Shown: in pieces, positions 1,769 through 15,391 of the stretch | Layout of the letters: each line of letters starts with the position of its first letter | Position numbering within the stretch: the stretch's first letter is position 1 | DNA from: an archaeon | GTDB taxonomy: Archaea > Asgardarchaeota > Thorarchaeia > Thorarchaeales > Thorarchaeaceae | Length of the DNA: 32,000 bases | Direction: 5' to 3' | Assembly (NCBI GenBank): GCA_024275415.1 | Contig: JAJRZD010000014.1 | Location: 1-32,000 of the forward strand | Made by a program: the position numbers and the translations under genes | Notes under the pieces: model-generated | Database searches by the model: none | What the model was told of the DNA's origin: nothing | The model's input: the letters and a program-made list of their open reading frames with translations, nothing else

Positions 1769-2650
1769 CTAGAACCTGTTTGGTACAGGCTTCTCTCCAG
1801 AATAATCGTAGAACCCCATTCCAGACTTCCGCCCTACCCATCCTGCGCGAACCATCTTCCTCAGAAGGGCTGGTGCGCGATACTTGCTGTCTTTGAATTC
1901 CTCTACAAAATAGTCAGAGATATAGAGCAGAGTGTCAAGTCCTACAAAATCAGCGAGTGTTAGAGGGCCCATCGGCCAGTTTAATCCTAGATGGATTGCA
2001 GTGTCCATGTCTTCTACTGTCGCGACACCTTCCTGAATCGCAAATATCGCCTCGTTGATTGCAGGGACAAGGAGGCGATTTACAGCAAATCCTGGAGCCT
2101 CGTTCACCAATACCGTCTTCTTTCCTACCTTGTGTGAAACCCTCTCAATGACCTTGACGGTTTCGTCAGTTGTTGCTTGACCTTTAATGATTTCCACAAG
2201 ACCCATGACTGGCACAGGATTAAAGAAGTGCATCCCTATGAATTTCTCTGGCCTCTTCGTCACAGCAGCCATCTGAGTTATGCTGATGCTTGAGGTGTTC
2301 GATGCAAGTATTGCGTGTTCAGGAGCCGCTTCATCTACCGCCTTCCATGTGTCTAGCTTCAGCTTGACAATCTCTGGAATGGCCTCGATGACCAGATCCG
2401 CATCTTCTACTGCTTCTTTCAGGTCAAGGACACCCTTGATTCGTCCTAGAGACGCATCTATCTCCTCTTGGGTTATCCGCCCCTTCTTGAGTCCTCTCTC
2501 AAGATTCTTCTTGATGGTAGCGAGACCCTTGTCTATGAACTTCTGGTCGATATCACGCATCTTCACTTCATAGCCCGCCTGAGCACAGACCTGAGCAATT
2601 CCATTGCCCATCTGTCCAGCACCCAGAACTGCAATCTTTCGAATATCCAA
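1769..2650 (-). CDS. hbd: 3-hydroxyacyl-CoA / 3-hydroxybutyryl-CoA dehydrogenase
   Basis: GAGQMGNGIAQV Rossmann motif, HFFNP catalytic motif, GFAVNRL and PMGPLTLAD; TTG start at 2650 has GGAGG 8 nt upstream (alternative in-frame TTG at 2665). Confidence 0.93.
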   Translation of the reverse strand: MDIRKIAVLGAGQMGNGIAQVCAQAGYEVKMRDIDQKFIDKGLATIKKNLERGLKKGRITQEEIDASLGRIKGVLDLKEAVEDADLVIEAIPEIVKLKLDTWKAVDEAAPEHAILASNTSSISITQMAAVTKRPEKFIGMHFFNPVPVMGLVEIIKGQATTDETVKVIERVSHKVGKKTVLVNEAPGFAVNRLLVPAINEAIFAIQEGVATVEDMDTAIHLGLNWPMGPLTLADFVGLDTLLYISDYFVEEFKDSKYRAPALLRKMVRAGWVGRKSGMGFYDYSGEKPVPNRF

Positions 2651-2675
2651 TATGACTTCCTCCAATATGACTTCC
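2646..2675. repeat. Perfect 15-bp tandem duplication (tccaatatgacttcc x2)
   Basis: Read directly: 2646-2660 and 2661-2675. Confidence 0.95.
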
Positions 2676-2782
2676 AGTTGCGTTCGCCTCCTTTCTGGGT
2701 CCGTAATATGTCTGTCGCAAGAGGTTTTTCCCTATAGTAACAAATTGTGACCCATTTCTGTGACCCTCAGTTGTGGCTCTGC

Positions 2783-2790
2783 TATATATA
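2783..2790. promoter_or_regulatory. Candidate TATA box (tatatata) in the divergent hbd/MFS intergenic region
   Basis: AT tract about 22 nt upstream of the structured leader; symmetric, so it could serve either direction. Confidence 0.45.
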
Positions 2791-2808
2791 CCAAAAGCCG
2801 AAGGCTAG

Positions 2809-2920
2809 TATCGTGAAACATCATGGTCATCGCCACTGCTCCCATTGACCACATAGGTGGTCACTTTCTCCCATCAGCAGCATATACAGTGACCAGCCTG
2901 TTGTGTTTCATGAGGTGATA
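2809..2920 (+). ncRNA. Putative structured 5' leader / cis-regulatory RNA upstream of the MFS gene
   Basis: Four nested helices: 2811-2820/2904-2913, 2824-2830/2889-2895, 2836-2840/2876-2880, 2846-2852/2857-2863; both non-Watson-Crick pairs are G-U on the + strand. Confidence 0.45.
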
Positions 2921-2926
2921 GATATA

Positions 2927-3031
2927 ATGAAGAAAACAAAGACACACCCTGAACGAAGCGCCCCCCCACGAGGCCAAACACCTGACCTTCGCACGTTTGT
3001 TTACCGTTACCATTGGAGGTTGGACGAATGA
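2927..3031 (+). CDS. Putative 34-aa uORF/leader peptide (MKKTKTHPERSAPPRGQTPDLRTFVYRYHWRLDE)
   Basis: SD GAGGTGAT at 2912-2919, 7 nt before the ATG; its stop overlaps the MFS ATG (ATGA 3028-3031). Confidence 0.4.
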   Translation: MKKTKTHPERSAPPRGQTPDLRTFVYRYHWRLDE

Positions 3032-4482
3032 GTCGGCTCTCTGGATTTTTTGGTTTCCCGGATGCCAGTGGTGATATTCATCGGTTATCAGTCCTGCTGG
3101 CACTCCTTCTTCCAATCGTTGCCTTGACAATCACTCTTTCGAGCACGTTCTTCATAATATTCATTGCCGAGTGGCTTGGGAACGGCTCATACATCGAAGG
3201 GCTTGCTCTAGTTGGTGTCATGACAGTCCTGCAAATGGCAGTGCAGACCATCTTCGACTATCCGACAGCAGCGCTTGGGGACGCTCTGGGACACAAATGG
3301 ATCATCATGTCGTCCTTTCTCACATTCTCATTGGGCTTTTACATGGTGTCGCTAATTGGTCCTGGCACCTCTATAGTCTTCGTAGCAGTACTCTTTCTAC
3401 TGATGGGCTTTGGGAACTCTCAGCTAAGTGGGACGTTCATGGCATGGTTTGATAACAACTATCGAGTGGCCATGCCGGGCGACAGTGACCGCAAGCAATA
3501 TGGTGTATTCCTTGGTAAGGTAGGGATGCTCTTTCAAATAGTCGCCACGTTATCATTGATCCCTGGCAGCATCCTTGCTGTCATTTTTGGACGACCTTGG
3601 GTGTTCCAGATGCAGGCAATTCTGTGCATTATAATTGCTCTTGCCTGTTTCAAACTGATAGAGGATCTCCCTGAAGTCAAGGCAGCACGGACTAAGCGCC
3701 CATCCTTCAGCGAGTATACTGGCGTACTTTCTGACGGCATACGATTCCTGTTCAGCGACAAATATGTAACGTACCTCATTCTGGGAGGCTGTATCGTTAT
3801 GAGCACAGGAATGGTCTGGGGCAGCTTGATATTGTTCCCTATGTACTTCGCGTACCTCTTGACTGATGTGGCTGTTTCAAGCTTTAGGACGTTATTGTTT
3901 GGGATAGGTGTTGTAAATCAAGAGCGAAGTGGAGTCTGGTCCAAGCGGTTCGAGCCCAAGAAATGGATCCCTAGATTCAGATTCTTGCAGATGACAGGAG
4001 CGATGTTCTACATGGTTTTCGCGGTGGTCATGCTACTCTTTCCTCCTACATATACTGCTGTTGACATGCTCTCTCTCACTGTTCCATTCACCCAGCTTAT
4101 CATCATGCAGATCCCCTCCTCAAGTATAGTCCCTCTACTACTGATGCTGGTTACATTCACCATAAGCGGTTTCTTCGGAGGCTTCGCTGAGATTCTGACT
4201 CAGCGTGAACTGCTTGATGTCATTCCCAACAACATCAGAAACAGCATGTATTCTCTATCTCCAACCATTGCAACTCTGTTGGCAATGCCACAGATTGCAT
4301 TCTTCGGATGGCTCATCCCCGCAGGAGGGTTCCCCATCACACTTGCTCTTGCTGCCACGATATCCTTTGTGGGAGTGGTCTTGATTGCCAAAGGCCTGAG
4401 CCATCCGAAACCTATGGCTTCCGACCTTGTTCAGGTTCCTCAAGCTGAACCAAAGTCCATTAGTACAATACCGGAAGAGTAG
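3028..4482 (+). CDS. Major facilitator superfamily transporter
   Basis: About 12 hydrophobic helices; MFS motif A-like DYPTAALGDALGHK; GGAGG 8 nt before ATG 3028. Confidence 0.88.
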   Translation: MSRLSGFFGFPDASGDIHRLSVLLALLLPIVALTITLSSTFFIIFIAEWLGNGSYIEGLALVGVMTVLQMAVQTIFDYPTAALGDALGHKWIIMSSFLTFSLGFYMVSLIGPGTSIVFVAVLFLLMGFGNSQLSGTFMAWFDNNYRVAMPGDSDRKQYGVFLGKVGMLFQIVATLSLIPGSILAVIFGRPWVFQMQAILCIIIALACFKLIEDLPEVKAARTKRPSFSEYTGVLSDGIRFLFSDKYVTYLILGGCIVMSTGMVWGSLILFPMYFAYLLTDVAVSSFRTLLFGIGVVNQERSGVWSKRFEPKKWIPRFRFLQMTGAMFYMVFAVVMLLFPPTYTAVDMLSLTVPFTQLIIMQIPSSSIVPLLLMLVTFTISGFFGGFAEILTQRELLDVIPNNIRNSMYSLSPTIATLLAMPQIAFFGWLIPAGGFPITLALAATISFVGVVLIAKGLSHPKPMASDLVQVPQAEPKSISTIPEE

Positions 4483-4644
4483 AACCCCTTCCGGTCTATT
4501 TACTTTCCAATTATTATGTGGTAGTAACATTAATACTCTTACAAGCTATCTGAACTGATGTGAAACAATATGAATGGCCGTCCAACATTTCTAACGGTTT
4601 CCTATTCGAGTGGTGGTCTTGACACCCTTGGATACGAGAAGAAA

Positions 4645-5313
4645 ATGGTTCGCGAAAAGGATGTGAAGTTCGATGGTGAAGATGGCTCTCTGGAGCTGAC
4701 TGACATCCGCATTGTCTGGTATAAGAAACCATCCAAATGGGGTGGGCTTAAGAAGGTGGGTGCGGTTGCAGGAGCCCTTGCTGCAGCAGCAGCGGTCGAT
4801 GCGATTGGTGACTCTGTAGGCGGATATGCAGGTCGTGCAATTAGCAGGACTGGGAGAAACATGGGTTACCTTGCCGTGGGTGCAGCCATCTCAAGTTGGA
4901 CTATGGATTCCTATTATAATAGAGATAAGAACGGGAACACCGAGAGCCTGGCTGTTCCACTAGTTGCGATTGCTCAGGCTGCACAGAGCGGTGACCGATT
5001 GGTTCTCGAATTGAAATCCGGTGGCACCATGCAGTTCAAGTTCAAGCAGAAGAAAGTGATTCCGTCAATAATTGCAAACATCACATCTGCCCAAAATGAC
5101 GGCAAGTGTCCATATTGTGGGACTTCAGCAGGAAATGCGGTCAAATGTCCTAACTGTGGAGCTGCGCTTGAAGGCAGTGGAGGAGACCCATCATCAGGTA
5201 CCACAGAGTCCGTCACAATTACTATGGGTGAAGGAAACAAATTCTGTACCAATTGCGGAAATCCAGCACCCGGTGATGCACGTTTCTGCGGAAAGTGTGG
5301 GAACCCAATGTAG
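4645..5313 (+). CDS. Zinc-ribbon protein with putative PH/GRAM-like domain and Gly/Ala-rich hydrophobic insert
   Basis: CPYCG/CPNCG and CTNCG/CGKCG pairs at the C-terminus; beta-rich N-terminus interrupted by GAVAGALAAAAAV...GGYAG; start chosen at ATG 4645 (track 4570). Confidence 0.7.
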   Translation: MVREKDVKFDGEDGSLELTDIRIVWYKKPSKWGGLKKVGAVAGALAAAAAVDAIGDSVGGYAGRAISRTGRNMGYLAVGAAISSWTMDSYYNRDKNGNTESLAVPLVAIAQAAQSGDRLVLELKSGGTMQFKFKQKKVIPSIIANITSAQNDGKCPYCGTSAGNAVKCPNCGAALEGSGGDPSSGTTESVTITMGEGNKFCTNCGNPAPGDARFCGKCGNPM

Positions 5314-6113: not shown

Positions 6114-6354
6114 TGTGTCCAAAACCTGTATCGACAATCGCTCAATACCCAAAAAAAGGATGAGGTCCATAGAACTGGACTAGAATGCCATTCTGTGACC
6201 ATTTAAGGCATCTACAGGAAAACATTATAGGAGAAAACGTTGAGAAACACGAAGTCTTAGAAAGACGCATATATCAATTTCAAGTACTATGCGTTGTGTT
6301 TTGCGAGTTACTCCGCCAACGACACAGACAGCAATCTTGTGGTGTGATAATAAA

Positions 6355-8331
6355 ATGGGCAAGAAGGAATCTAGTGCTTACACAGATAGTGGAGGCGACA
6401 TTAGACAAGGCACCATTGCGAAATTCATGCGTAAAAGGACTCAGCTAGTTGGTTTTGAAACCGGTCTGAACAAGCATACACAGTATGCAATCGAGTTCTT
6501 GGACAATGCAATAGATGCGATTGAGAGTTGGTGGTGGAAGGCCGATAGTCATCCTCGACTTCAGGATAGTTTGGATCCAGCAATCATCGAAGAGGTCAAG
6601 GCAAAGCTCAAAGATGAACTGTACGATTCGATATCATTGAGCAAGCGTTTTGAGCGAGATGTGCGTGCCGGGAAAGAAATCAGTCTGCCCCCTCAAAAGA
6701 AGGAGTCCCTTGATGATAGGCTTACACAATTTCGGAAATTCCTTGTTCCATTCAGGTCTCTCATCAACAAAAGAGAGCCTCTGGTCGTGATCAAGCTGAC
6801 CGAGGTGTTCATGCCCGACCTCATCCCCATTGATGATGATGAGGGTTTCAAGGTGTACGAGTTCGTCTGTTTTGACAACGGTGTGGGTATGGTTCCCAGA
6901 GATTTAGAGAAATATGGGATATACCTTGCTTCTAGCAAGTCCGAGAAACTGAGGCAGACGCGAGGAAGTCAGGGATTTGGCGCTCCTTCCGCATTCAGCG
7001 ATGCGCAGAACACCACAGGAAAGCCCATCTTTACAGTATCGAAGCGTTTCACTGCGGACAAGGCAATCGCTGCTGATTTCTATACGACCACTGCGAACAC
7101 AAAAGATTACGTCAGCGGCCCCATCGAAATCGATCTGCCTTTCAAGCATGGGACCTACATCCGTTTGAATTACCTCAACATCCAATACCGAAGAGGGTAT
7201 GCTGATACCTACTGTGAAATGGCTTCACTTCTTAATCCCCATGTCACGATTGTCTTCATAGATCCTTATGGTGAGGTACATGTTCATCCAAGAAAAGTAA
7301 AGGAGTTCCCAAAGGAGCCAAAGTATGCCCAACCACATCCCGCAAGCATACGCATCGGAGAGTTTCAAGATCTCCTTCGTGAATCCGGGACTAGAGACCT
7401 CAAGAGCTTCCTGACCAAGGCATTTGTACGCCTCAGCGATAACAAGGCAAAGAAGATAATCGCCGCAGCAAACAAGGATCTCAGAAGACGGCACCTTGAT
7501 ACATTATCTCCTAGCACTCCGACTGACACTCTGGATAAGACTGAGGTCGAGCTACTTTACAAGGCGTTCTCCAATGAGGACTATATTGCTCCACCAACGG
7601 ACACGGTCGTACCAGTTGGAGAAGAGGTTCTTGAGGAAACTATCAGGAAGGCGTACAATCCTGACTTTGTAGCAGCAGTCACTAGGAAACCCACATCTGG
7701 AAAAGGACTATCATTCGCCGTAGAGGTGTGTATTGCCTATGGTGGCGAGATACGTAATGCAACTTCAGCTCCGATGGTACTCTGGAGATTCGTGAACCGA
7801 GTCCCTAAGCTGCGGGATAATAGCGACTGTGCCACATGGAAGGCAACGACCTTAGTTAACTGGAAAAACTACAAAGTCCCGACGTTTGACAATGGGATTC
7901 CTCGTGGCCCTATGATGATTCTCATTCATGTCGCCGGAGCATATGTCCATGTCATGTTCAAAGGACAAAGCAAGCAGGCGCTTGCAGAGGACGAGGTGTT
8001 GCTGAAGGAGATCAAGCTTGCATTGGAGGATGCAGGTCGGAAGTTCAGGAGATTTATCACCCGAAGAGAAACTGCACGACGAAAGGCAAAGCGTGCTGGA
8101 ATCCTTGCCATGTATGCAGACCAGTTTGCTCAAAGCCTAACGAATATCGTAAATGATGCATTAGGAAAACCAAAGTTCGATGCCGAACTCATCGCAAGTA
8201 AGCTTAGAGACTCCATTTCTGGTTTCGAAATGGAAAAGGATCAAGCTGAAACCGAAAGTGATACAGTAGGAACCGATCTGATTGCTGATATCCCGCTGGG
8301 GGATGGTTCTAAAAGCGAAACAGAGGTGTAG
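6355..8331 (+). CDS. top6B: DNA topoisomerase VI subunit B (with large insertion in the GHKL domain)
   Basis: EFLDNAIDA N-box, DNGVGM, TRGSQGFG, HGT, H2TH region, WRFVNRVP transducer; start likely ATG 6355. Confidence 0.95.
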   Translation: MGKKESSAYTDSGGDIRQGTIAKFMRKRTQLVGFETGLNKHTQYAIEFLDNAIDAIESWWWKADSHPRLQDSLDPAIIEEVKAKLKDELYDSISLSKRFERDVRAGKEISLPPQKKESLDDRLTQFRKFLVPFRSLINKREPLVVIKLTEVFMPDLIPIDDDEGFKVYEFVCFDNGVGMVPRDLEKYGIYLASSKSEKLRQTRGSQGFGAPSAFSDAQNTTGKPIFTVSKRFTADKAIAADFYTTTANTKDYVSGPIEIDLPFKHGTYIRLNYLNIQYRRGYADTYCEMASLLNPHVTIVFIDPYGEVHVHPRKVKEFPKEPKYAQPHPASIRIGEFQDLLRESGTRDLKSFLTKAFVRLSDNKAKKIIAAANKDLRRRHLDTLSPSTPTDTLDKTEVELLYKAFSNEDYIAPPTDTVVPVGEEVLEETIRKAYNPDFVAAVTRKPTSGKGLSFAVEVCIAYGGEIRNATSAPMVLWRFVNRVPKLRDNSDCATWKATTLVNWKNYKVPTFDNGIPRGPMMILIHVAGAYVHVMFKGQSKQALAEDEVLLKEIKLALEDAGRKFRRFITRRETARRKAKRAGILAMYADQFAQSLTNIVNDALGKPKFDAELIASKLRDSISGFEMEKDQAETESDTVGTDLIADIPLGDGSKSETEV

Positions 8332-10488
8332 GTGGTGCCAAAGAAAAAGAAGAGCTCGAAAAAACCTGTTCAGGCAACCCTTGGTGAACTGGTAGGCGAA
8401 AAGAAAGGCTCTCGTAAGACAAAGGCCCGTAAAACCACCGGGAAAAAAACATCTACGGAATCTGCTGCTTCCAAGACCAAGGCTAAGCAAAAGACTGTAA
8501 AGAAACCTGTTCCCAAATCTACCAAGAAAAAGGAATCTCCAAAAACAAAGAAGAAAGCCTCCTCATCAGCTACCAAGAGGAAACAGACAAAGGCGCCTCC
8601 GAAATTGGAAGGGCCTCCATTCACGACGCTTCCTGGCGTGGGTTCGAGGCTATCTGACAAACTCCTCAAAGCTGGATACACGTCTATCGAGAAACTATCC
8701 AAGGCACGGGCAAATGCATTAGCGAAGAAAATCGAGGGACTCAGTAAGGATGGTGCAATTAGGCTAATCACTGAGGCCAAACGAGCCATTGTTGATACAG
8801 CAAAGCCCCCTGAGGACGACGTTGATCAGGATCGGACACGCCCCTCTCTTACCGACCTTCCAGGAGTGGGAATGAAACTTGCCAAGGCACTAGAATCCGC
8901 AGGATATAACTCAATCTCACGGCTTTCACGCGCTCATGCTGAAGGACTTGCAGCCCGTGTTGATGGTCTGGGAAAAAACAGTGCCGTAAAGCTAATTGCC
9001 GCTGCGAAAAAATACATCAAAGAACGAGAACGCAGCATTGTGTTTAGTGAACCACCAGCCCCGACTGTGGCTACACCTGCCAAGACGGCTGGAACAAAGC
9101 CAAAGAAAGCACCAAAAAAGGTGCCAAAGAAGGAATCAGCCATTAAGACAAAAGAACCAGAGCCACCTGCGAAGCCTGCAAAGGCCAAGCTAAAAAAACC
9201 CAAGAAATCATCCAAAAAATCTGAGGAAGCGCCAGTGAAGAAGACAAAGCGCAAACCAGCTCCGAAACGAAAGAAATCGAAGATTATACGAAAGAAATCG
9301 GGTCTTAAAGTACCCAAAGCCGTGGAAACTCTTGCAAAGACAATGAAAACACGGTGGGCTGAAGTCGAGAAGATGGAAGAGGACGGTACCCTACCCAGTG
9401 GTCTTCCGGAAACCGTTGAGGTAGTCAGCCTAGGAGTACAGGATACTACAAATAGGCTCGTTGAAACCGCAATGGAAGTCTTGAATGAGGCACTGGTAAC
9501 AGGCCGACCAGCTTTCGAGATTCCGAGCAGGTCAAGCGACAATATCGTATGGGACGAGTTCAGAGACCTTCTCCTGTTAGGAATGAAGACTGTAAATCGC
9601 CCTTACCATTCTCTTGCATCCGTTGTTGATGCAACTCGAACAGCCCGGGTCATGGAGATTATCTATCAACTCTTGCGCTCCAACCTCCACGCAACGAAAC
9701 GTGAGGTATTCTATAGCGACGTGAACCTGTTTAGGGATCAGAAATACAGTGACAAGATTATCGAGGATGTTTCCTCTATGCTCAATACTACCAGAGATAG
9801 CGTACATATCGTTGCTAGTGCTCGTGGCTCTGCAATGGGGCGGGTCATAATTCGTGATGGAGGCGACATAATTGACCTCACGAAAATGGGTACTGGTGGT
9901 TGGGCAATTACTCCTTTCTTAGATCAGGTCGAAATTGTGGAAAGTGATGCAGAGTTCATCCTTGTAGCAGAGAAGGATGCTGCTGTTATGCGACTGGCTG
10001 AAGCAAAATACTGGAACCGACAGCCTTGCATTGTCCTTACTGGAAAAGGCTCTGGAGATATGGCTACGCGAGCGTTCCTCAAGCAGCTGGTGAAAGAGTT
10101 GGAGATTCCCGCCTTTGCGTTGGTCGATAGCGACCCCTATGGACATTACATCTATTCGGTATTTCTCCGAGGCAGCAAGAGGCTCAGCTATGAATCCCCA
10201 TTCATCGCGACCCCAGAGCTCAAATTGCTGGGAGTCCTCTCTCGGGATCTTGATGCATTCAATATTCCAAAAAGCGTACGTATCCCAATGGAGCCTGCCG
10301 ACATCAAGCGAGTTCGGGAGATGCTGAAGGAACCATTTGTGCAGAAGAACAAGGAATGGGTCCAAGACCTAAAACTGATGTTACAGATGAAAGAGAAGGC
10401 TGAGATCCAGGCGTTTGCCAGCCACTCATTTGAATATTTGACTGACGAGTACTTGCCCCAGAAGCTTGAAACTGGTGACTGGATTTAG
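8332..10488 (+). CDS. top6A: DNA topoisomerase VI subunit A (Spo11 family) with long N-terminal extension
   Basis: TKREVFY catalytic Tyr, VAEKDA and DSDPYG TOPRIM motifs, KAEIQAF; GTG start directly after the top6B stop. Confidence 0.95.
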   Translation: MVPKKKKSSKKPVQATLGELVGEKKGSRKTKARKTTGKKTSTESAASKTKAKQKTVKKPVPKSTKKKESPKTKKKASSSATKRKQTKAPPKLEGPPFTTLPGVGSRLSDKLLKAGYTSIEKLSKARANALAKKIEGLSKDGAIRLITEAKRAIVDTAKPPEDDVDQDRTRPSLTDLPGVGMKLAKALESAGYNSISRLSRAHAEGLAARVDGLGKNSAVKLIAAAKKYIKERERSIVFSEPPAPTVATPAKTAGTKPKKAPKKVPKKESAIKTKEPEPPAKPAKAKLKKPKKSSKKSEEAPVKKTKRKPAPKRKKSKIIRKKSGLKVPKAVETLAKTMKTRWAEVEKMEEDGTLPSGLPETVEVVSLGVQDTTNRLVETAMEVLNEALVTGRPAFEIPSRSSDNIVWDEFRDLLLLGMKTVNRPYHSLASVVDATRTARVMEIIYQLLRSNLHATKREVFYSDVNLFRDQKYSDKIIEDVSSMLNTTRDSVHIVASARGSAMGRVIIRDGGDIIDLTKMGTGGWAITPFLDQVEIVESDAEFILVAEKDAAVMRLAEAKYWNRQPCIVLTGKGSGDMATRAFLKQLVKELEIPAFALVDSDPYGHYIYSVFLRGSKRLSYESPFIATPELKLLGVLSRDLDAFNIPKSVRIPMEPADIKRVREMLKEPFVQKNKEWVQDLKLMLQMKEKAEIQAFASHSFEYLTDEYLPQKLETGDWI

Positions 10489-14374: not shown

Positions 14375-15391
14375 ATGGACGAAGAAATCGATTATGAGAA
14401 GTTCGATGAGAAAGAAGCCGATGATGGTGAGATTGACGTTAGTGGTGATGTTACAGGTCTAGAAGTTACCGATTTACCAGGGGTCGGTCCTGCGATTGGA
14501 AAACGACTTTCTGAGGCGGGATACAAGAGTGTTGAGGCAATTGCGGTCGCATCTCCTAGTGAACTCGCTGCAGCAGGTTCTATAGGTGAAACAACAGCAA
14601 CAAAGATTATCAAAGCTGCACGAGAGATGCTTGACATTGGCTTTGAAACCGCTGACGAGCTGTTGGTCAGGCGACAGAATGCCGGTCGTATTTCCACAGG
14701 ATCCACCGCACTTGACGAACTCTTCGGTGGTGGGATCGAAACTCAGAGCATTACCGAGATGTACGGTTCGTTCAGATCCGGCAAGACACAGATGGCACAT
14801 CAACTATCTGTCAATGTTCAATTGCCCGAAGGTGAAGGTGGGCTTGGTGCAACGGCAATCTATGTTGATACAGAAGGAACTTTCAGGCCAGAACGATTAG
14901 TCGATATGGCTGAAGCTGTCGGGCTTGATCCTGCAAAGGTGCTAAAGAACGTGGTTTGGGCGCGAGCGTACAATTCAGACCATCAGATTCTTCTATGTGA
15001 TCAGGCAATGGAAATGGCACCTGAGAAGAACGCAAAGCTGTTAGTTGTGGACTCGGTCACAAGTCACTTCAGAGCCGAATATACTGGAAGGGGAACCCTT
15101 GCTGCACGACAACAGAAGTTGAACAAGCACCTTCATCATTTACAAAGAGGTGCTGAGATCAACAATATGGCTGTCTATATCACCAATCAGGTCATGTCGC
15201 GACCCGATGCATTCTTCGGAGACCCAACCGCACCTGTTGGCGGCCATGTACTAGCACACGTTCCCCAGACACGGTGTTACTTGCGTAAATCCAAGGGCGA
15301 GCGTCGTATCTGTCGACTTGTTGACTCTCCGAACCTTCCAGAGGGTGAAGCTGTATTTGCAGTCCTAAAGGACGGCATACGTGACGTATAG
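14375..15391 (+). CDS. radA: DNA repair and recombination protein RadA
   Basis: N-terminal HhH (LPGVG), FETA polymerisation motif, Walker [21 protein letters not shown], Walker B LVVDS, L1/L2 loops. Confidence 0.97.

Follow-up and report, generated by a model that had tools for sequence, protein, structure and literature searches.

The canonical A subunits of archaeal topoisomerase VI (Topo VI), such as those of S. shibatae (2ZBK), M. jannaschii (1D3Y) and M. mazei (2Q2E), are proteins of 301-389 residues with no N-terminal module, which combine the active-site tyrosine of a 5Y-CAP domain with the glutamate and DxD motif of a Toprim domain and are encoded next to the partner subunit, Top6B. 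The present work concerns a Top6A gene on a stretch of 32,000 nucleotides of DNA from an archaeon of the family Thorarchaeaceae, in the Asgardarchaeota (GenBank assembly GCA_024275415.1, contig JAJRZD010000014.1, positions 1 to 32,000 of the forward strand, hereafter “the window”). The product of this gene shares the two catalytic domains and the neighbouring Top6B gene but has 330 extra residues at its N-terminus, which comprise two double helix-hairpin-helix, or (HhH)2, units together with a pair of polylysine tracts and, at the tip, a conserved motif. The protein is probably a working Topo VI A subunit whose polycationic arm serves as a sequence-independent tether to duplex DNA; we infer both the DNA binding and its effect on activity.

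A tandem (HhH)2 array on a topoisomerase is shared with topoisomerase V (Topo V) of Methanopyrus kandleri, a type IC enzyme with 12 tandem (HhH)2 domains. The array of Topo V surrounds DNA and acts as a processivity factor, the removal of repeats lowers the activity of the enzyme, and the tandem arrangement has been called unusual for (HhH)2 domains by the authors who described it (PMC9489208). The catalytic domain of Topo V is unrelated, however, and its array is C-terminal and tightly packed, with three domains that are apurinic/apyrimidinic lyases, whereas the Thorarchaeaceae protein has a Top6A core in place of a type IC catalytic domain, and its array is N-terminal, consists of 2-7 units strung on disordered lysine-rich linkers rather than packed together, and implies no lyase function. 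In eukaryotic Topo VI, DNA-binding capacity is supplied by RHL1 and BIN4, and archaea are without both (PMC11302465). These plant and eukaryotic proteins, which serve a Topo VI of the Asgard/eukaryote lineage, are polypeptides in their own right, and no homology between them and the arm was detected, whereas the putative DNA-binding part of the Thorarchaeaceae enzyme is fused in cis; the analogy is functional only.

Two further groups of proteins carry comparable modules. The N-domain of RadA/Rad51 shares with the units of the arm both the (HhH)2 fold and the LPGVG-x9-AGY spacing, but it is not their nearest relative by sequence or tree. The closest relatives of the tandem outside Top6A are the ribosomal proteins eL32 and eS25 with an HHH_5 module, found in Asgard metagenome-assembled genomes (compare the N-terminus of Haloarcula marismortui L32e), which also have K/P/E-rich linkers but in which the host protein, and presumably the nucleic-acid partner, is different.

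Architecture of the extended subunit

The open reading frame (ORF) of the fused gene runs from 8332 to 10488 on the forward strand (718 amino acids from GTG 8332) and begins with the codons GTG-GTG directly after the TAG stop of the Top6B gene. Pfam detects HHH_5 in two stretches (E=7.1e-17, 62.1 bits, cut-off 27), TP6A_N (4.1e-20) and TOP6A-Spo11_Toprim (4.6e-55, profile positions 1-170 of 170). The 5Y-CAP tyrosine stands in the sequence R457-E458-V-F-Y461, which conforms to the family context R-[DE]-x-[YF]-Y, and the Toprim domain has its metal-binding residues E547, in E547-K548-D549-A550, and D599 and D601, in D599-S600-D601. These motifs are intact, and R457-E458-x-x-Y461 and the two Toprim motifs are invariant in 44 orthologs (the codons lie at 9712-9714 for Tyr461, 9970-9972 for E547 and 10126-10134 for D599-S-D601). 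The best PDB match of the core is S. shibatae 2zbk_A, at 7.3e-62, and yeast Spo11 is still detected at 2.1e-6. Because the gene is coupled to an intact Top6B that contains both a GHKL ATPase and a transducer domain (Pfam Topo-VIb_trans 7.5e-43; 1.6e-57 against PDB 2q2e_B, with the N-box, G1, G2 and switch-lysine regions aligned), its sequence identifies it as the A subunit of Topo VI, a type IIB topoisomerase, rather than a free Spo11.

The arm that precedes the core has a net charge of about +67 over 330 residues, with the HhH units themselves at +7 and +5, and its K/P-rich linker closes with a conserved junction motif, K-x-x-R-K-x-S-G-L-x-V-P-K-A-V (residues 317-331). An earlier note on this DNA, made without database searches, had described two tandem repeats of about 55 residues, an intact catalytic core with REVFY, EKDA and DSD motifs, and the fusion of a Top6A/Spo11 subunit to two modules of the RadA/Rad51 N-domain type in a probable Asgard archaeon. 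This description holds in each respect: both repeats are present in frame in the ORF, as they were quoted and at the coordinates given, the domain scan that the note proposed gives the two HHH_5 stretches, the structural match to the RadA N-domain (given below) supports the fold, and the homologs are labelled Candidatus Thorarchaeota. The note had also allowed that the architecture might already be known as a common one, but no description of an HhH-Top6A fusion was found in the literature searched on Topo VI with Asgard and HhH.

Recurrence of the extension and constraint on its sequence

Among 5.8 billion proteins searched, the same Pfam architecture was found in more than 100 clusters, with lengths of 650-840 residues; nearly all of them are labelled Candidatus Thorarchaeota, and they are named just “helix-hairpin-helix domain-containing protein” or “SPO11”. 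The gene was found in 80 of the 86 genomes of the Thorarchaeaceae, the window's genome included. Because the architecture recurs both in this many clusters and in this many genomes of the family, it lies beyond what chance would produce. The open frame is 642-954 residues long wherever the gene is uncut by a contig end. Two shorter forms that might have counted as exceptions were rejected, since the 505-residue frame of genome G368 is broken by a run of N and the gene in G367 is cut by the end of its contig.

The N-terminus is itself conserved among the orthologs (M-S-K-K-K ... V-Q-[AS]-T-L-G-[ED]), most of which have an ATG start there. In the window the second of the two GTG codons, at 8335, is the more likely start, given its spacing and the alignment with the M-S-K-K-K start of the orthologs. 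The strength of selection along the gene was evaluated by comparing the window gene, segment by segment, with three same-genus orthologs, using the proportions of nonsynonymous (pN) and synonymous (pS) differences. Values of pS were 0.62-0.90, so that synonymous sites are near saturation, while pN was 0.15-0.34 in the HhH units, 0.32-0.49 in the tails and 0.07-0.10 in the core. Because pN is far below pS in every segment, the whole extension is under constraint at the protein level; this, the retention of the gene in about 80 genomes and the conserved start show that the extension is translated. A look for RNA evidence over positions 8000-10488 of the window gave no entry.

Fold and relatives of the HhH units

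Each unit of about 55 residues contains two HhH motifs with GxG-type hairpins and a connector helix, as is characteristic of the (HhH)2/HHH_5 fold. The two units of the window are identical at 27 of 54 positions, and the GxG hairpins show little or no variation among the Top6A units, as does the lysine next to them. The AlphaFold2 (AF2) model of the tandem fragment consists of two four-helix bundles, for which the predicted local distance difference test (pLDDT) scores are 83-91, and a disordered linker between them (pLDDT <50). A full-length AF2 model was also considered for the placement of the arm, but was rejected for its poor core (mean pLDDT 54.5, shallow alignment), and the tandem fragment alone was used for the fold search. 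With the tandem as query, Foldseek ranks the AR1-AR2 domains of NusA at the top (1.6e-5) and Topo V second; with a single unit, it finds the N-domain of M. maripaludis RadA at a root-mean-square deviation of 0.9 A over 57 columns and 37% identity, and the alignments of units to the RadA N-domain and NusA AR2 range over 0.9-1.4 A. In sequence searches of the PDB, residues 87-225 best match residues 611-752 of Topo V (3.7e-5), after which come eL32 chains (1e-3 to 4e-3), the C-terminal domains of NusA, and Rad51/RadA.

There are about 19 HHH_5 matches in the window's genome. Single modules occur at the N-terminus of eL32 (G000:C73:116829-117710), the C-terminus of eS25 (G000:C28:41193-42095), the N-terminus of RpoK/Rpb6 (G000:C30:71547-72236) and the C-terminus of a 580-residue multi-pass membrane protein (G000:C64:3736-5475), and in eL32 and eS25 the module is joined to the core by a long K/P/E-rich linker. 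In pairwise comparisons within this genome, the first repeat of Top6A is closer to these four modules than to RadA, and the second is about equally close to the RadA N-domain (23/55 identical) and to the module of the membrane protein. When 1.84 billion representatives were searched exhaustively by HMMER with the tandem region as query, the best matches after Top6A itself were eL32 proteins carrying 2-4 units and eS25 proteins carrying 2; the members with names come from Loki- and Thorarchaeota-labelled assemblies. Lower-ranked matches include kinases, WD40 and PQQ propellers, an RNA polymerase subunit and zinc-ribbon proteins, and no RadA was present among those hits whose domains were scanned. 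One apparent match in the representative search, P0124 (1747 residues, 22 stretches), proved to be a HYR-repeat protein and was discarded as spurious.

In the tree of units, 25 of the 36 Top6A units cluster with the unit of the membrane protein (support 93/95), while the RadA N-domain falls in the other half of the tree together with the eL32 and eS25 units, although a tree built on 56 columns is weak evidence. Because the pairwise scores, the global search of representatives and this weakly resolved tree all put other modules nearer, descent of the units from RadA is not supported, even though they share the fold of its N-domain. The presence of the same module on eL32, eS25 and RpoK suggests that HhH beads are widely used as a portable nucleic-acid anchor in this lineage.

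The tip motif and PCNA

Within the first 95 residues of the arm the sole strictly conserved element consists of Q14, T16 and L17, which are invariant in 44 orthologs. They belong to the tip motif V-Q-A-T-L-G-E-L-V, which follows the pattern Q-x-x-L-x-acidic-hydrophobic-hydrophobic and thereby recalls the PCNA-interacting peptide (PIP) box. Canonical C-terminal PIP boxes of the form Q-x-x-[LV]-[TS]-D-F-[FLI] are found in the window's genome in PolD DP2, a Y-family polymerase, NreA and Fen1, and with these clients the Top6A tip shares the glutamine at position 1 (Q14), the aliphatic residue at position 4 (L17), the acidic residue at position 6 and its placement where a disordered basic tail ends; a pose in the PIP site is predicted for it by the model described below. 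It differs from them in lying at the N-terminus rather than the C-terminus, and in lacking the aromatic pair at positions 7-8, where the window has L-V and the orthologs have V-I, L-V, V-V, H-D, H-E, V-E, M-E and similar pairs. As judged by its residues, the motif is PIP-like and not a canonical PIP box. The pattern Q-[AST]-T-L within 25 residues of the start occurs in one other ORF of the genome (among ORFs of at least 150 residues). In the same genome a DUF2797 protein (296 residues, G000:C9:37853-38740) ends in Q-T-G-L-L-D-F-I, a canonical-looking C-terminal PIP box, and is a possible unrecognised client of PCNA.

The complex between residues 1-45 of Top6A and the genome's own PCNA (G000:C47:2416-3186) was predicted with alignments for both partners, with controls, and in three runs. 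The predicted complex has an ipSAE score of 0.81, compared to 0.00 for the best control, which passes a mark reached by 58 of 80 solved complexes and by 2 of 110 mismatched pairs. Agreement among the three runs extends to at least 70% of contacts, with a partner pLDDT of at least 54. The predicted contacts join Top6A residues 9-21 to PCNA residues 38-47, the interdomain loop (129-134) and the C-tail (249-257), which together make up the classical PIP site. This pass may, however, reflect likeness to the many solved PIP-PCNA structures rather than binding. It is possible, though less likely than not, that the Asgard-type Topo VI of the Thorarchaeaceae is clamp-coupled, with the tip docked in the PIP pocket of PCNA and the polycationic HhH arm of about 300 residues acting as a leash that would allow the enzyme to act on DNA crossings close to the replication fork. 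No report of a PIP motif in Topo VI was found in the literature searched on Topo VI with PCNA/PIP. The subunits of Topo VI have been co-purified with NucS in Pyrococcus abyssi (reviewed in PMC4929162).

Variation in unit number and the relationships of the paralogs

The number of HhH units varies within the Thorarchaeaceae, being 2 in most genomes, 3 in G318, 4 in G335 and G385, 5 in protein cluster P0099 (844 residues), and 7 in G387 and in cluster P0122 (950 residues), and units from one Top6A protein are often sisters in the unit tree. Together, the grouping of units from the same protein and the range of copy numbers indicate that the units have spread by tandem duplication. In the one genome of the sister family, the orthologous Top6A (L041:772-2031) has 420 residues, with a K-rich tail of about 70 residues that lacks the tip motif, and no HhH unit, and in other Asgard families the length of Top6A is 390-500 residues. 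Several of the latter (465-495 residues) have an N-terminal domain of about 80 residues (L136:43-1431:-; also L130, L133, L135, L139 and L120), and residues 9-78 of the L136 protein match Pfam Rad60-SLD (29.8 bits, cut-off 23.8) and ubiquitin (27.4 bits, cut-off 25.4). Lineage-specific additions thus seem to concentrate at the N-terminus of Asgard Top6A, as ubiquitin-like domains in some families and as HhH arrays in the Thorarchaeaceae.

A second Top6B/Top6A pair, with 508 and 350 residues and no extension, is encoded on contig C123 of the window's genome, and its Top6A has M. mazei 2q2e as its best PDB match (8.2e-64). The two ORFs of this pair (L039, G000:C123:48000-53500), at 2306-3358 and 3351-4877 on the minus strand, overlap, and the pair is compact and of the euryarchaeal type. 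A third, very divergent Top6A-like copy is found in other Thorarchaeaceae genomes. In a Top6A tree of 38 rows and 393 columns, the long Thorarchaeaceae copies and the ortholog from the sister family nest in a clade with 100/100 support together with the Top6A of 15 other Asgard families, and the C123-type and third copies fall outside that clade. By its position in this sequence tree, the window protein is a vertically inherited Top6A of the Asgard type. A recent study (PMC12680538, 2025) reported that a single conserved Top6A of Asgard archaea stands closest to the eukaryotic proteins, that their extra copies are related to those of other archaea, and that a third copy is present in Thorarchaeia; the placement of the window Top6A among its paralogs fits this scheme. 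That the genome also encodes a second Topo VI of plain type suggests that the two enzymes divide the work between them.

Proposed mechanism and competing explanations

Beyond the architecture, translation, purifying selection, fold, linker disorder, taxonomic spread, paralog identity and intact catalytic residues that the analysis establishes, a mechanism can be proposed for what the extension does. The Top6A of the Thorarchaeaceae has gained a flexible polycationic arm composed of the K-rich tail, the (HhH)2 beads (2-7 in relatives) and the K/P-rich linker, and there would be two of these arms on each A2B2 enzyme. In this proposal, contacts to backbone phosphates would be made by the HhH hairpins, and the lysine tracts would add electrostatic attraction, so that the arm would keep the enzyme on DNA or chromatin and raise its local concentration, affinity, dwell time or processivity; it might also help to grip a crossing second duplex or the DNA that flanks the gate segment, and the PIP-like tip might additionally dock on PCNA. 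(HhH)2 domains as a family bind the DNA backbone without sequence preference, and by analogy with this family, together with the net charge, sequence-independent DNA binding by the arm is probable. It is because of this family behaviour, the polycationic charge and the precedent of Topo V that the arm is read here as a built-in DNA tether.

Several observations weigh against this interpretation. (HhH)2 domains can mediate protein-protein contacts, as NusA AR2 does, and the occurrence of related modules on ribosomal proteins, an RNA polymerase subunit and a membrane protein means that the ligand need not be duplex DNA. The units are split by long disordered linkers, unlike those of Topo V, so that a wrapped, clamp-like arrangement is not implied, and the core of the full-length AF2 model (mean pLDDT 54.5) is too poor to place the exit of the arm from the enzyme.

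One alternative is that the HhH units are adaptors for protein or RNA, in the manner of NusA AR2 with the alpha-CTD of RNA polymerase. NusA AR1-AR2 is the top structural match for the tandem, and modules of the same kind are found on eL32, eS25, RpoK, kinases, and WD40 and PQQ propellers, but the units of Top6A are basic and are set in polycationic tracts on a DNA enzyme, their GxG hairpins and the next lysine hardly vary, and Topo V and the RadA N-domain are equally good structural matches, so that an adaptor role appears unlikely. A stronger case can be made that the arm is mainly a replisome tether, whose essential function is to present the PIP-like motif to PCNA, with the HhH units and lysine tracts serving as spacers or secondary contacts. 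Such a role is consistent with the invariance of Q14, T16 and L17 inside a low-complexity tail, with the predicted complex in the canonical PIP site (far above the best control) and with the rarity of Q-[AST]-T-L near the start of other ORFs in the genome. On the other hand, both of the aromatic residues that define a PIP box are missing, unlike in the known PCNA clients of this genome, positions 7-8 are H-D, H-E, V-E or M-E in some orthologs, the abundance of solved PIP-PCNA complexes could by itself explain the success of the prediction, and no Topo VI PIP was found in the literature searched. The replisome tether is accordingly regarded as a real but rather doubtful possibility.

The remaining alternatives concern whether the extension exists and where its modules came from. 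The extension would be an annotation artefact if translation began at ATG 9343 and the upstream frame were open by chance, as the earlier note recognized in allowing that the real start might lie downstream of about 9330. The ORF does start with GTG, and the in-frame ATG codons nearest its 5' end are at 8872 and 9343; but the frame is open, with conserved residues, across about 1 kb in about 80 genomes, most orthologs have an ATG at the conserved N-terminus, which contains the invariant Q14, T16 and L17, pN is far below pS, and a GAGGTG stands just upstream of 8332, all of which make an artefact scarcely credible. The same note had called a direct origin of the modules from RadA unproven, but had suggested that their presence might link break formation to recombination. 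If the modules had been taken from RadA, they could couple Spo11-like breaks to RadA-dependent recombination, and three observations are in keeping with this: the fold is that of the RadA N-domain, the second repeat has 23/55 residues identical to that domain, and 3-8 kb separate the RadA gene from Top6BA, both in the window and in each of the 5 other family genomes checked (G313, G315, G333, G335 and G387). The identical LPGVG-AGY spacing to which the note appealed is indeed found in both repeats and in the window's RadA, although the spacer has 9 residues and not 10. Set against these points, the first repeat is nearer to four other modules, the eL32 and eS25 fusions rank first globally with no RadA among the domain-scanned hits, and the unit tree groups most Top6A units with the membrane-protein unit and puts the RadA N-domain elsewhere; modules of eL32, eS25, RpoK and the membrane protein are as close as RadA or closer. 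There is likewise no sign in support of the recombination link, and nothing in the analysis points to programmed breaks. Top6A is coupled to an intact ATPase subunit, and because ORFs on the opposite strand intervene, RadA and Top6BA do not form one operon; their proximity may simply reflect a gene order that one family has conserved. An origin from RadA with a role in recombination is therefore considered very improbable, and the built-in DNA tether remains the preferred interpretation of the arm.

Organization of the locus

The coordinates of the features of the locus are collected in Table 1. The RadA gene of the window, which has the N-domain quoted in the earlier note, is at 14375-15391.

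Table 1. Positions of the Top6B and Top6A features in the window
Feature	Position	Strand	Details
Top6B gene, partner subunit	6289..8331	+	680 residues; GHKL ATPase with insert of ~94 residues, transducer, acidic C-tail
Shine-Dalgarno-like GAGGTG	8323..8328	+	Inside the Top6B 3' end; 3 nucleotides before GTG 8332, 6 nucleotides before GTG 8335
Lysine-rich disordered N-terminal tail	8332..8616	+	Residues 1-95; 33% K; net +29; AF2 pLDDT <50 for residues 1-88
Conserved V-Q-A-T-L-G-E-L-V motif, PIP-like without aromatic pair	8368..8394	+	Residues 13-21
(HhH)2 unit 1	8617..8784	+	Residues 96-151; Pfam HHH_5, unit hidden Markov model (HMM), AF2 pLDDT 83-88
Inter-unit linker, short, acidic, proline-containing	8785..8844	+	Residues 152-171; AF2 pLDDT <50 for residues 158-168
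(HhH)2 unit 2	8845..9012	+	Residues 172-227; Pfam HHH_5, unit HMM, AF2 pLDDT 85-91
K/P-rich disordered linker	9013..9321	+	Residues 228-330; 31% K, 16% P; net +29
Top6A catalytic core	9322..10485	+	Residues 331-718; winged-helix/5Y-CAP and Toprim; Pfam TP6A_N, TOP6A-Spo11_Toprim

The position of the GAGGTG suggests that it may act in the translational coupling of Top6A to Top6B. In three of the loci examined (window 8329-8337, L084 2640-2645 and L041 766-774), Top6A begins in the frame of Top6B, no more than one codon away from its stop, and in most of the others the two genes overlap out of frame. Stop read-through, or a Top6B-Top6A fusion, was considered as a candidate explanation for this junction because the two ORFs share a frame in the window and are divided only by the TAG, and it was rejected. 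Top6B continues in the frame of Top6A in 3 of the 35 uncut loci of the family (L054, L062 and L084) and in the sister-family locus L041, and because the shared frame is limited to 3/35 family loci, read-through is not conserved. An open frame of 1364 residues in G315 proved to be false, since a stop divides a Top6B of 705 residues from a Top6A of 658 residues. To judge by the arrangement of codons, the junction looks like tight translational coupling and not read-through.

Top6B has distinctive features of its own. Compared to M. mazei Top6B (2q2e_B), the alignment to which skips from query residue 80 to residue 175, it has an insert of about 94 residues (residues 81-174, window 6529-6810) between the N-box and the G1 box of the GHKL fold. 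Its C-tail (residues 640-680) is acidic, with a net charge of -9, opposite to that of the Top6A arm.

Implications

The main text of PMC12680538 makes no mention of HhH domains. What the present analysis adds is the placement of the Top6A paralog by tree, the link to the modules of eL32, eS25 and RpoK, the selection test, and the PIP-like motif with its predicted PCNA complex.

Topo VI is the archaeal ancestor of plant Topo VI and of the meiotic break-making protein Spo11, and the clade that includes the present Asgard Top6A was placed closest to the eukaryotic proteins in the 2025 study (PMC12680538). If the interpretation given above is correct, the Thorarchaeaceae have taken a different route to extra DNA-binding capacity, by means of a built-in array of 2-7 (HhH)2 units, and this array converges on the design of the unrelated topoisomerase V. 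Should the PIP-like tip bind PCNA, it would show how a type II topoisomerase can be brought to replication forks, and would constitute the first direct link to PCNA for a type IIB topoisomerase, in an archaeal lineage whose Top6A is sister to eukaryotic Top6A/Spo11. The orthologs, with 0-7 units, form a natural series that lends itself directly to the study of how a type II topoisomerase is tuned by DNA tethers.

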